From Alphaproteobacteria bacterium (GTDB lineage Bacteria > Pseudomonadota > Alphaproteobacteria > UBA9219 > RGZA01), in the NCBI GenBank assembly GCA_021732145.1, contig JAKFVN010000006.1, positions 2,474-66,473 on the forward strand: 64,000 nucleotides of DNA, read 5' to 3'. Shown here piece by piece: positions 35,556-38,467 of this stretch. The position numbers and the translations under genes were made by a program. How positions within the stretch are numbered: the stretch's first letter is position 1; each line of letters begins with the position of its first letter. The notes beneath the pieces are model-generated. The model had not been told where the DNA came from, searched no databases, and saw only the letters and a program-made list of their open reading frames with translations.

Positions 35556-36302
35556 ATGCAGTATCACCCACGACCATTTGTAACCAAGCGTAAAGACCCC
35601 ATTCGCAGGTGGTTTGCGCGTCTGAGTCATGAGTTTAAAAGCGCCAGAGGCCCCATGGAAACCCAGGGGCAGCGCGCATTGGCGGTTGTGGAATCCCTAT
35701 TCATCGACCATACGATTGTCAGCATGCTTAACCCCAACCGCCATCGCGTGACGGATGGATTGTGGCGGTCAAGCCAGCCTACGCCATCGCAAATTGCGGC
35801 ATTGGCAAAGGAAGGCATTCGCACGATTGTGAATCTGCGCGGCGAGCGCGACTGCGCATCCTATTATCTGGAAGCCGAAGCATGCCGCGAAAACGGCGTG
35901 GAGCTGATTAATTTCCCGGTGAATTCCCGCCAGCCGCCCAAGCGCGAAGTGCTGGAACAGTTGGAAGCATTATTTGCGCGCGTTAAAAAACCGGCATTGA
36001 TGCATTGCAAGGCTGGCGCTGACCGCGTGGGCATCATGAGCGCGCTGTATCTATTAATTCATGACAAAGTGCCAGTTGAAAAAGCGCTGCAGCAGCTTTC
36101 ATTTAAATATGGTCACGTGAAACAATCGAAAGCTGGTGTGCTGGATAAATTCTTTGAAACCTACCGTGATTTCAACGCCAAAACTCCCATGCCCTTTATG
36201 GAATGGGCAATGAACCATTATGACCGTGACAGCGTTATCGCATCCCATAAAATCGCGGGTTGGGCTGAATGGCTGTATAATGATTTCTTGAAGCGGGAAT
36301 AG
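35556..36302 (+). CDS. dual-specificity/tyrosine phosphatase family protein
   Basis: RSSQP, VNLRG, HCKAGADR (CX5R) signature. Confidence 0.9.
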   Translation: MQYHPRPFVTKRKDPIRRWFARLSHEFKSARGPMETQGQRALAVVESLFIDHTIVSMLNPNRHRVTDGLWRSSQPTPSQIAALAKEGIRTIVNLRGERDCASYYLEAEACRENGVELINFPVNSRQPPKREVLEQLEALFARVKKPALMHCKAGADRVGIMSALYLLIHDKVPVEKALQQLSFKYGHVKQSKAGVLDKFFETYRDFNAKTPMPFMEWAMNHYDRDSVIASHKIAGWAEWLYNDFLKRE

Positions 36303-36321
36303 ATAGCATCCAATTATAACA

Positions 36322-36349
36322 CCTCATGCCGACGAAAGTCGGCATCCAT
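36322..36349 (+). repeat. 28-bp palindrome, left end of GIY-YIG cassette
   Basis: CCTCATGCCGAC-GAAA-GTCGGCATCCAT. Confidence 0.88.
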
Positions 36350-36350
36350 G

Positions 36351-36641
36351 TTAGTTATTTAGACAATCATAGAGATCATTCCATTCTGGGTTATCTTTTT
36401 CAATTAAATCAATTTTCCATTGCCGCTTCCATTCTTTCATTTGCTTTTCACGTTGAATTGCAAATAACAATTCTGCAAATTCTTCATAGTACACCAAGCA
36501 ATGAACCGCGTATTTTTTTGTAAACCCTTCGATAATATTGTTTTTATGTTCAAGCATTCGGCGGTAAAGATTTTTAGTAACACCAATGTAAAGGGTACCA
36601 TTTTTCTTGCTTGCCAAAATGTAAACAAAGCTTCGAGGCAT
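36351..36641 (-). CDS. stand-alone GIY-YIG nuclease
   Basis: VYILAS..NGTLYIGVT.NL.RR..EH, AIQREKQ.K.W.R.WKI.LIE..NP.W.DL. Confidence 0.93.
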   Translation of the reverse strand: MPRSFVYILASKKNGTLYIGVTKNLYRRMLEHKNNIIEGFTKKYAVHCLVYYEEFAELLFAIQREKQMKEWKRQWKIDLIEKDNPEWNDLYDCLNN

Positions 36642-36657
36642 GTTTCACAACAATCAA

Positions 36658-36685
36658 ATGGATACCGGCTTACGCCGGTATGAGG
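36658..36685 (-). repeat. 28-bp palindrome, right end of GIY-YIG cassette
   Basis: Reverse complement CCTCATACCGGC-GTAA-GCCGGTATCCAT; 23/28 identical to the left copy. Confidence 0.88.
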
Positions 36686-36691
36686 AAAAGG

Positions 36692-38467
36692 CTAAGCTTT
36701 AAACTGCAAACGATAGAGTTCGGCGTAGGCGCCATTCTTGGCGAGCAATTCGTCATGCTTGCCCTGTTCAATCACTTGGCCTTTATCAATCACATAAATC
36801 ACATCGGCCTGACGCACGGTTGATAAACGGTGCGCGATGATGAATGTGGTGCGGCCTTGCGCCAAACGTTTAATCGCGTGCTGCACCATTTCTTCCGATG
36901 CTGCATCAAGCGCTGACGTTGCTTCATCCAGCAACAAAATGGGGCTATTGCGCAGGAATGCACGCGCCAGCACCAAGCGTTGTTTTTGTCCGCCGGATAA
37001 TGAACTGCCCTGCTCCCCCACTACGCTGTCGTAACCCGCAGGTAGTTTGGCGATGAATTCATGCGCTTCGGCTGCGCGCGCGGCATCCTGAATATCTTCA
37101 ATGGTTGCGCCCCCCGTTTTACTATTTGGGCGGCCATAGCCGATATTGGCGGCTGCGCTTTCGTTAAACACAATTACATCCTGACTAACCAGCGTTACGG
37201 CATCGCGCAGGCTTGGAATAGTCACATCGCGCACATCCTGCCCATCAATCAACACCTGCCCGCCCTGCACATCATATAGGCGCGTGAGCATATTAAAGAT
37301 TGTGGATTTACCGCCGCCGCTCCGGCCAACCAATGCAACGGTTTGGCCTGCTTCAGCAACCAAATTCAAATTTTGCAATACGGGGCGTTCAGGTTTGTAG
37401 GCAAACACAACTGATTTCAATTCAACACGCCCTTGCTTTACATCCAGCGGCATGGCGCTTGGGCGTTCGGTAATTTGCGGATGTTCATCCATGATTTCAA
37501 ATACGCGCTGCGCGGCAGCCAGCCCTTCCTGCATCACGGCATTCAGATTTCCAAGGGAACGTACAGGCTGTGCAGCCATCAGTAATGCTGTTACAAAGCC
37601 AGTAAAATCACCAACGGTTCCTGTGCCCGATGCAACGCGCCATGTACCAAATGCAAGTACGCCCGCCACAGCAAAACCACTGGCAACCTCCAATAAAGGG
37701 TCAACGCGGGCACGAAGGCGCGATGCTTTAATAAGCGCGGTATATAGCGTTTTAAACGCACCATCGGCGCGCTGTTCTTCATCGCGTTCCAAGCGGTAGG
37801 ACTTAATCATCCGCACGCCCAAAAAGCTTTGCTGCAGGAATGCGGTTAAATCACCAATCCCTGCCTGCAATGAACTGGCGGTTTTGCGAATGCGTTTTCC
37901 GATTTGAATAATCGGGTAACCCATGACCGGATAAACGACGAGCACGATAACCGTGAGCAGCGGGTCGATATATAAAATGGTGCCAAGCAGTGCGACTACC
38001 GTCAGCCCGTCGCGCACAATGCCTGTCAGGCAGCGGTTGATGGCCATGCGCAACGCTTCCACATCGGCCGTAAAGCGTGAAGTCAGTGTGCCCGCCGCAT
38101 CACGCTGCAAACGTGCAAGGTCGGAACCCAGCAAATGGCGGTACAGCGCATTTTGAATATCCAGCACAATCTGGTTCACCATTGTGCTGGTCGAAATCGC
38201 CTGAAAGTACAACGTCGCGGCGCGGCATGTGGTTACCGCAATAATCAGAATGGGTATCAGGTAGATGGTCTTGGTGTCTTTTTGGTCAATCAGCTTGAAC
38301 GTCCACTGAATAACCAGCGGGTAAGCCGTAGTCATTACGGCAGCGAGCACCATCAGCAGGAATACACCGATGATTTGGGTGCGGTATGGTTTTATCCAGA
38401 GATGCCACAGGCGGGAAACAAGCGTGGCGGTACGGTTATCAATAGGCTGTAGCACAGGTTTAAGCAT
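36692..38467 (-). CDS. ABC exporter, fused permease/ATPase (MsbA-like)
   Basis: N-terminal TM domain, GRSGGGKST, LSGGQKQR, LLLDEATSALD, IAHRLST. Confidence 0.93.
   Translation of the reverse strand: MLKPVLQPIDNRTATLVSRLWHLWIKPYRTQIIGVFLLMVLAAVMTTAYPLVIQWTFKLIDQKDTKTIYLIPILIIAVTTCRAATLYFQAISTSTMVNQIVLDIQNALYRHLLGSDLARLQRDAAGTLTSRFTADVEALRMAINRCLTGIVRDGLTVVALLGTILYIDPLLTVIVLVVYPVMGYPIIQIGKRIRKTASSLQAGIGDLTAFLQQSFLGVRMIKSYRLERDEEQRADGAFKTLYTALIKASRLRARVDPLLEVASGFAVAGVLAFGTWRVASGTGTVGDFTGFVTALLMAAQPVRSLGNLNAVMQEGLAAAQRVFEIMDEHPQITERPSAMPLDVKQGRVELKSVVFAYKPERPVLQNLNLVAEAGQTVALVGRSGGGKSTIFNMLTRLYDVQGGQVLIDGQDVRDVTIPSLRDAVTLVSQDVIVFNESAAANIGYGRPNSKTGGATIEDIQDAARAAEAHEFIAKLPAGYDSVVGEQGSSLSGGQKQRLVLARAFLRNSPILLLDEATSALDAASEEMVQHAIKRLAQGRTTFIIAHRLSTVRQADVIYVIDKGQVIEQGKHDELLAKNGAYAELYRLQFKA

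Follow-up and report, generated by a model that had tools for sequence, protein, structure and literature searches.

A single-domain GIY-YIG nuclease gene between inverted CCTC-tagged hairpins in an alphaproteobacterial genome: a probable Ssn/SRM cassette with its own hairpin pair

Introduction

Ssn nucleases and their hairpin repeats, NTS/SRM, were described by Chenal et al. (2025, Nat Commun, PMC11893778), and the account given here draws on parts of that paper. The 94-aa SsnA of Neisseria meningitidis consists of a single GIY-YIG domain. Its binding to the hairpin repeat NTS (CGTCATTCCCGCGMAVGCGGGAATCYRG) is confined to single-stranded DNA, and it cuts the hairpin-bearing strand upstream of the hairpin by a few nucleotides (3 nt from the NTS), leaving the complementary strand, duplex DNA and RNA uncut. 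The three bases preceding the palindrome matter for cleavage and the C right after it for binding, and the substitutions Y6A, Y17A and E64A in SsnA abolish cutting. Ssn homologs of three other species act alike on their own repeats. Homologs were recognised by tblastn (E < 1e-10) and the repeats by the SRM string HGTCWY...RNCYNB; in CDD the family falls under cd10448 (GIY-YIG_unchar_3). At least one SRM is found in 71% of the homolog loci, and 42% have an SRM on both sides. The distribution of Ssn across phyla is patchy, and pathogenic Neisseria carry hundreds of NTS/SRM copies. SsnA lowers transformation by NTS-bearing DNA, and the NTS-ssnA-NTS arrangement was likened, as a hypothesis, to an insertion sequence and to RAYT/REP systems (PMC11893778).

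Hairpins of a similar build had been defined earlier as CGTC-tagged REPs by Di Nocera, De Gregorio and Rocco (BMC Genomics 2013, PMC3733652), a paper that is likewise used here in part. In these repeats, a stem of 8-9 bp that begins with AT carries a loop of 4-5 nt and is followed by a CCA tail; TGTC and CCTC occur as tag variants. They occur mostly as dimers in opposite orientation, apparently without a dedicated transposase. REPs have also been proposed to be elements that work at the RNA level (cited abstract, PMC3733652). Transposition by the Ssn family is not reported in the literature that we found, in which citing papers were represented by their titles and the beginnings of their abstracts. 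Literature searches that combined GIY-YIG with REPs or with COG2827 returned nothing relevant.

RAYT genes, which encode an HUH Y1 (IS200-like) transposase, lie between inverted REPs. IS200/IS605 elements have subterminal hairpins, make both cuts on one strand and proceed through covalent enzyme intermediates. GIY-YIG enzymes are hydrolytic, and we know of no strand-transfer or joining step for them.

Here we describe a hairpin-bounded GIY-YIG gene in a 64,000-nucleotide stretch of alphaproteobacterial DNA (the window; all positions refer to it) and compare it with these systems. The genome that holds the window is called G000, and G001-G004 are its congeners.

Results

Layout of the focal locus

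The locus consists of the following features, from left to right.

35556-36302, + strand: PTPase-like gene, whose stop abuts the insert (open reading frame and Pfam)
36303-36691, no strand: whole insert, 389 nt, from the PTPase-like stop to the ABC-transporter stop (empty congener sites and GC)
36303-36321, no strand: left filler, 19 nt, outside the left hairpin (G000 only, against the empty sites)
36322-36349, + strand: left hairpin, CCTC-ATGCCGAC-GAAA-GTCGGCAT-CCAT (tag, 8-bp AT-first stem, loop, tail)
36351-36641 including the stop, - strand: ssn-type gene for a 96-aa single-domain GIY-YIG nuclease (open reading frame list and Pfam)
36642-36657, - strand: 16-nt spacer from the right (upstream) hairpin to the ATG
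36658-36685, - strand: right hairpin, CCTC-ATACCGGC-GTAA-GCCGGTAT-CCAT (tag, 8-bp stem, loop, tail)
36686-36691, no strand: right filler, 6 nt, outside the right hairpin (junction alignment)
36692-38467, - strand: ABC transporter with membrane and ATPase domains, upstream of ssn and co-directional with it (open reading frame and Pfam)

The hairpins bound a 364-nt cassette, which is the core of the 389-nt insert (19 + 364 + 6). They are inverted, and their tags face outward. The left one lies 1 nt from the ssn stop codon and the right one 16 nt before the start, a spacing that the original prediction had given and that the coordinates confirm. The stems of the two hairpins diverge at positions 3 and 7, where the partner bases compensate, and the loops at one base, both being of the GNRA type; the sequence is exactly as predicted in this respect. 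DNA fold energies of the 20-nt hairpin cores are -8.9 and -8.5 kcal/mol. The neighbouring genes converge on the cassette, the PTPase-like gene on the + strand and the ABC transporter on the - strand. The cassette has a GC content of ~35-36% against a genome mean of 51%, so that a GC trough marks it, and it is compositionally foreign. The earlier description of an AT-rich 96-aa GIY-YIG gene between convergent genes is thus borne out.

When both hairpins were merged into one degenerate pattern and as many as 3 mismatches were tolerated, the window had two sites and 100 shuffles had none. The same two sites are the only ones across the whole 2.09-Mb, 54-contig G000 genome. An Rfam search of 36100-36900 gave two chance-level matches only (E 1.3 and 8.3). 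We note that the left filler (36303-36321) contains GCATCCA, the letters of the 3' end of the left hairpin, and may be what is left of an older one. No promoter-like site was found in the 16-nt spacer (36642-36657). As this spacer has no room for a promoter of its own, ssn is likely to be transcribed by read-through from the ABC gene.

The encoded protein resembles SsnA

The 96-aa protein matches Pfam GIY-YIG (PF01541) over residues 5-77 (E 3.3e-15) and contains no other domain. No NCBIfam family scored above its cut-off, and a PDB sequence search gave no match at E up to 0.01. When a plasmid collection was searched by tblastn, two chromosome-sized Neisseria gonorrhoeae records were matched (E 9e-24). 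The matching open reading frame encodes 94 aa with Tyr6, Tyr17 and Glu64, and it is flanked by an NTS hairpin after its stop and an inverted one upstream. Judging from its length, residues and NTS flanks, we infer that it is the SsnA ortholog. By BLASTP, the focal protein shares 46 of 86 residues with it (53%) in a gapless alignment (E 3e-34), and Y7, Y18 and E65 of the focal protein align with Y6, Y17 and E64. Among 30 aligned relatives, Y7, Y18, R28 and H32 never vary, and at least 90% keep E65. By these residues, the active site of the focal protein is intact.

With the gonococcal frame taken as SsnA, the focal protein falls within the published homology limit (tblastn E < 1e-10), and its gene is bracketed by hairpins built like the NTS, with a tag of 4 nt, a stem that opens with AT and a C following the palindrome. 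We are therefore highly confident that, as far as sequence can tell, it belongs to the Ssn family. By analogy with the characterised members, the protein quite likely performs hairpin-directed cleavage of single-stranded DNA.

The published SRM string HGTCWY...RNCYNB matches neither focal hairpin, and relaxing its G recovers the right one only. The miss is due to the tag CCTC and one stem position, and CCTC is a natural tag variant in the description of the CGTC REPs, as far as that paper is used here (PMC3733652). The miss is a limit of the string and not of Ssn membership. Taken together, the locus is probably an Ssn/SRM cassette whose cognate hairpins are a pair of CGTC-family REPs of its own, of the CCTC variant.

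Empty sites in the genus point to a gain

We examined the focal site by a DNA search of 40 relatives and by junction alignments. The 389-nt block is absent from three congeners, in which the gap between the stop codons of the PTPase-like and ABC genes measures 1 nt (G002), 3 nt (G003) and 1 nt (G004) and holds no hairpin. In G001, the same PTPase 3' junction (L009:2104-3603) is occupied by unrelated mobile DNA. That DNA contains two small - strand frames that are toxin-antitoxin-like and an open-ended transposase-like frame, as read from their translations.

Presence and absence are equally exact at the sites of three further cassettes of the genus. The second ssn cassette of G000 is absent from G002, G003 and G004; a cassette common to G002 and G001 is absent from G000, G003 and G004; and the G003 cassette is absent from G000, G001, G002 and G004. 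At five of the six readable ends of the focal, G002 and G003 cassettes, the insert ends 4-9 nt outside the tag, in letters that are not repeated; the sixth is the focal left end, 19 nt outside its tag. No convincing target-site duplication was seen at the junctions of the focal, second G000, G002 and G003 cassettes. The original prediction had remarked on the lack of a duplication at the focal site, and comparison of G000 with the empty sites agrees with it.

The second G000 cassette, on contig C42, encodes a paralog that is 50% identical to the focal protein and is boxed by inverted hairpins of other sequence. These hairpins (L002:1450-1816) read CGTCATTGCGAGC...GCGAAGCAATCCAG, with stems broken by a GA/GAA internal loop and a distal stem whose length differs between the two sides. 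Solitary relatives of this hairpin occur on G000 contigs C17, C5 and C41.

The same pattern of presence and absence could have arisen if the cassettes were ancestral and had been precisely deleted in the congeners, with the hairpins as ordinary REPs or terminators and the GIY-YIG gene as a passenger. In favour of this, deletion is promoted by inverted repeats, the right hairpin has a weak terminator-like score at the end of the ABC gene, and REPs as RNA-level elements have been proposed (cited abstract, PMC3733652, used in part). However, each of the four cassettes would need a clean loss in 3-4 of 5 genomes, with gaps of 0-10 nt left behind (42-64 nt at the second G000 cassette). The GC trough over the cassette, the divergence of the paralogs (48-60% identical), the cross-phylum relatives and the matching of a hairpin type to each paralog, described below, also speak against such losses, and we regard this explanation as very improbable. 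The focal cassette was very probably gained rather than lost, and the gain appears to be recent.

An identical cassette lies between diverged flanks

The cassette is present at the focal site in contigs from four public runs, each belonging to a different study, and 1601 nt were compared. No RNA data set was listed among the carriers. One run represents the strain of the window, and the other three share a second haplotype. This haplotype has 34 substitutions in the 1601 nt, 19 in 36053-36288 and 15 in 36743-37079. There are none in 36289-36742, which includes the whole insert, nor in the outer 353 and 221 nt. The immediate flanks of an identical cassette thus diverge by 4-8% between strains. 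If the substitutions were evenly spread, the chance of a 454-nt stretch free of all 34 would be ~1e-5, a figure that overstates the case because the substitutions are clumped.

Two origins may be considered for this pattern: a tract of ~1 kb may have been imported from a donor with an identical cassette and flanks diverged by 4-8%, or two tracts may have ended at the cassette. A single imported tract would make the cassette younger than its flanks, and two tracts stopping at the cassette are what Ssn cutting of incoming single strands predicts. Both readings tie the divergence pattern to the cassette.

The pattern also bears on whether Ssn is a domesticated host function, as proposed for Neisseria. 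In that role it would restrict single-stranded DNA, incoming or exposed, at hairpins and shape recombination tracts, and the layout would be a relic. The lowered transformation by NTS-bearing DNA (PMC11893778, in part) fits this explanation, and the strain-variable patches 36053-36288 and 36743-37079 flank the cassette as if tracts had stopped there. However, the second haplotype has a 1-nt deletion in an A/T homopolymer (36513) that shifts the frame past about residue 42, upstream of the catalytic Glu, which argues against strong selection for ssn. The gene is missing in close relatives, with no ssn match in G004, and some four pattern hairpins in 2.09 Mb make a genome-wide role implausible. 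We consider a domesticated function unlikely here.

No cassette-less contig and no joint across 36303-36691 was found in the four runs, in contigs that can hide rare variants. Run X5 has a contig of 52 nt in which 22 letters resembling the reverse complement of a PTPase 3' end are fused to the middle of ssn (36555-36584), and its cassette contig has a depth of 28, the flanks one of 17-18. This run may contain the cassette in more than one context.

Homologs are patchy and carry matched hairpin pairs

Of the 71 genomes examined in the order, 44 have ssn homologs (E <= 1e-5), and the number per genome ranges from 0 to 8. The top match, 71% identical, is in another family, and the best congener matches reach only 56-60%; the homologs are therefore patchy and non-orthologous. 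Their non-syntenic positions and the empty congener sites agree with the patchy, position-variable distribution that had been predicted, and are the opposite of the syntenic fixation that had been named as counting against it.

Perfect-stem hairpins lie on both sides in 43 of 52 ssn units of the order (31 units were read first), which upholds the earlier expectation of flanking inverted hairpins. Within a unit, the two hairpins agree at a median of 24 of 26 tag, stem and tail positions, and 27 of the 43 units reach at least 22; this within-unit figure is conservative, since some low values are register errors of the script. Between units, the median is 15/26 (903 pairs), and for the 41 pairs from the same genome it is 16/26, with 3 pairs reaching 22. 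Tags vary by paralog (CGTC, TGTC, CCTC, GAAC, GTAC and AGGC among others), as do tails (CCAG, CCAT, CCAC, CCCA and CTCC among others). The matched hairpin pair is particular to each Ssn paralog in its tag and tail type. The paralogs are 48-60% identical, and no recent intragenomic copies of gene-bearing cassettes were found, the highest nucleotide identity between frames being 83%. One homolog in G006 (contig C110, L197:1-721), 62% identical, has inverted repeats of another kind (CGGGGCCCATC...), with 10-11-bp stems that are not of the CGTC type.

A wider scan with a 6-sequence alignment as query and one genome per species gave 584 relatives. The best 80 of the 584 are 57-73% identical and come from Acetothermia, Latescibacterota, Planctomycetota, candidate-phyla-radiation lineages, Dehalococcoidia, Legionella, Methylomonas, Bradyrhizobium, a cyanobacterium and a Halobacteria MAG; the best relative (73%) is in an Acetothermia MAG. 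Among these best 80, 78 loci had enough flank, and 43 of the 78 have a strong inverted repeat upstream and downstream, nearly always of the GTCAT...ATCC kind. One Methylomonas locus carries the exact NTS consensus. The focal protein had no match in a phage collection. The plasmid collection yielded 34 records, of which 33 are typed as non-mobilizable and several are chromosome-sized; these records gave no evidence for a plasmid vector of the cassette.

Hairpin repeats are abundant in relatives and rare in G000

The pattern TCATNCCS-N6-12-SGGNATCC was counted in the 71 genomes of the order, with the reversed pattern as control. Copies range from 0 to 251 per genome, and the control gives 0 or 1. 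There are 4 in G000, none in G003 or G004, 251 in G025 and 202 in G006. Hairpin and ssn counts are correlated across the 71 genomes (Spearman 0.61; median 51 hairpins with ssn and 4 without), a relation that we take as descriptive, given the shared ancestry of the genomes. Among the 40 genomes that have at least 20 hairpins, 8 gave no ssn match to the focal query, for example G050 (121) and G043 (81).

The CTC-tagged form is concentrated in the taxonomic family of the window, with 62 copies in G006, 39 in G005, 6 in G007, 2 in G000 and at most 1 in the others. A count of solo palindromes had been suggested: relatives have up to 251 hairpins in all, and the hairpin of the focal type occurs in G000 only at the two focal sites. 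Both CTC-tagged hairpins of G000 flank the gene, and this genome gives no support for the supposed spread of free palindromes. Relatives contain many gene-less inverted doublets of ~100-150 bp with outward tags and a conserved inner sequence, among them a CCTC-tagged family of ~104 bp in G006. These doublets look MITE-like.

Other searches of G000 were less specific. The published SRM regular expression has 8 matches, only one of them hairpin-like by eye, and a loose definition (TC, a stem of at least 6 and CC) gives 268 sites against 246-277 in five Markov controls, which is uninformative. One solitary canonical hairpin, TGTCATCCCCGCGAAGGCGGGGATCCAC, lies on contig C10 (9158-9185) with no adjacent ssn. 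The PF01797 (Y1/HUH) profile had no match in G000, G005, G006 or G025, three of which are the most hairpin-rich.

A further possibility is that the cassette is an autonomous transposon, in which Ssn acts as the transposase, cuts at the outward tags and moves both the unit and, in trans, the MITE-like gene-less doublets. The abundance of outward-tag doublets in relatives and the lack of an HUH transposase in the hairpin-rich genomes checked favour it. So do the four cassettes present or absent at exact sites within one genus, the insert ends 4-9 nt outside the tag at 5 of 6 ends, which is the side on which meningococcal SsnA cuts, and the cassette that is identical across strains with immediate flanks diverged by 4-8%. 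However, no target-site duplication and no recent intragenomic gene-bearing duplicates were seen, G000 has no free CCTC hairpin copies, 8 of 40 genomes with at least 20 hairpins have no ssn match, and no contig in the four runs skips the cassette. A single cut per strand is predicted, GIY-YIG enzymes are hydrolytic with no strand-transfer step that we know of, and the literature that we found, part of it as titles and opening lines of abstracts, reports no transposition by the family. We regard this as a serious possibility that falls somewhat short of being probable.

Discussion

Our reading is that the focal block was horizontally acquired, that it is selfish or semi-selfish, and that its ends are set by the interaction of the nuclease with its hairpins. 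Judging from the characterised homologs, the protein would bind each hairpin once the region is single-stranded and would nick the tagged strand a few nucleotides 5' of the tag. The predicted cuts are at the outer edges of the cassette, on the + strand to the left of 36322 (~36316-36320) and on the - strand to the right of 36685. The comparisons suggest horizontal transfer of the unit, with insertion at gene-end junctions. Since inverted hairpins lead to one predicted cut per strand, a clean excision does not follow readily. Ssn itself might drive the movement, a suggestion that we make with some reserve.

Still more tentatively, hairpin-ssn-hairpin cassettes might form a distinct class of prokaryotic mobile elements, with ends set by a ~95-aa GIY-YIG single-strand nuclease that cuts 5' of outward hairpins, insertion or "homing" at gene-end junctions with hardly any co-conversion of the flanks, and gene-less doublets as non-autonomous derivatives. 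If so, the CGTC REPs would have the dedicated enzyme that they appeared to be without.

Chenal et al. left the question of whether hairpin-ssn-hairpin units move, and the focal genus offers clean comparative material on it, namely four exact-site cassettes in one genus and an identical cassette between diverged strain flanks. The paralog-specific tags and tails are also a natural panel of nuclease-hairpin specificities, which would be useful for Ssn single-stranded DNA tools. We note that counts made with the published SRM string come out too low for tag variants such as CCTC.

Compared with classical insertion sequences and MITEs, the focal unit has inverted ends, with no target-site duplication at three well-resolved junction sets, and its kind lacks near-identical copies, the top nucleotide identity between frames of different copies being 83%. 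With the "peel and paste" IS200/IS605 elements it shares hairpin recognition in single-stranded DNA and a cut offset from the hairpin, both predicted at the focal locus; unlike in those elements, the focal hairpins are inverted, so that one cut per strand is predicted. Like the free-standing, I-TevI-like GIY-YIG homing endonucleases, it is a small, putatively selfish GIY-YIG gene found at the same site in diverged strains with hardly any co-converted flank. However, the focal protein has no separate DNA-binding domain, the empty congener sites hold no hairpin target, and the Ssn family does not cut double-stranded DNA, according to the parts of PMC11893778 used here.

The original prediction had proposed a REPtron-like unit. 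With REPtrons and RAYT-REPIN systems the locus shares an enzyme gene flanked by an inverted repeat that the enzyme recognises (as predicted at the focal locus), repeat doublets scattered in genomes and an enzyme gene that is usually single-copy per type, whereas the enclosed gene encodes a GIY-YIG hydrolase and not an HUH/Y1 transposase. The proposal is supported in part: hairpin recognition by the family stands, having been demonstrated for homologs; the analogy with insertion sequences and RAYT/REP is not new, as it had already been published (PMC11893778, in part).

The focal hairpins have the CCTC tag, the 8-bp AT-first stem, the 4-nt loop and the CCA tail of CGTC REPs, and they form an opposite-orientation heterodimer whose stems differ at two pairs. 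They differ from CGTC REPs in that the pair encloses a nuclease gene and that copy number is low in G000 (4 pattern matches, 2 CTC-tagged).

The closest likeness is to the Ssn/SRM system itself, with which the locus shares a ~95-aa single-domain GIY-YIG protein, 53% identical to the gonococcal one with the Y/Y/E residues aligned, hairpins that have a 5' tag, a stem beginning with AT and a C next to the palindrome, their placement on either side of the gene and a patchy distribution across phyla. It differs in its CCTC tag, by which both hairpins escape the published SRM string, in the near absence of other copies from G000, against hundreds in pathogenic Neisseria, and in the outward direction of its tags. 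Around the gonococcal ssnA-like frame (L208:330-960), the nearest hairpin tags face the gene, and tags facing the gene are also seen at several loci of the order (L035, L042). The focal locus is a further example of the published Ssn/SRM system and adds no new category to it.
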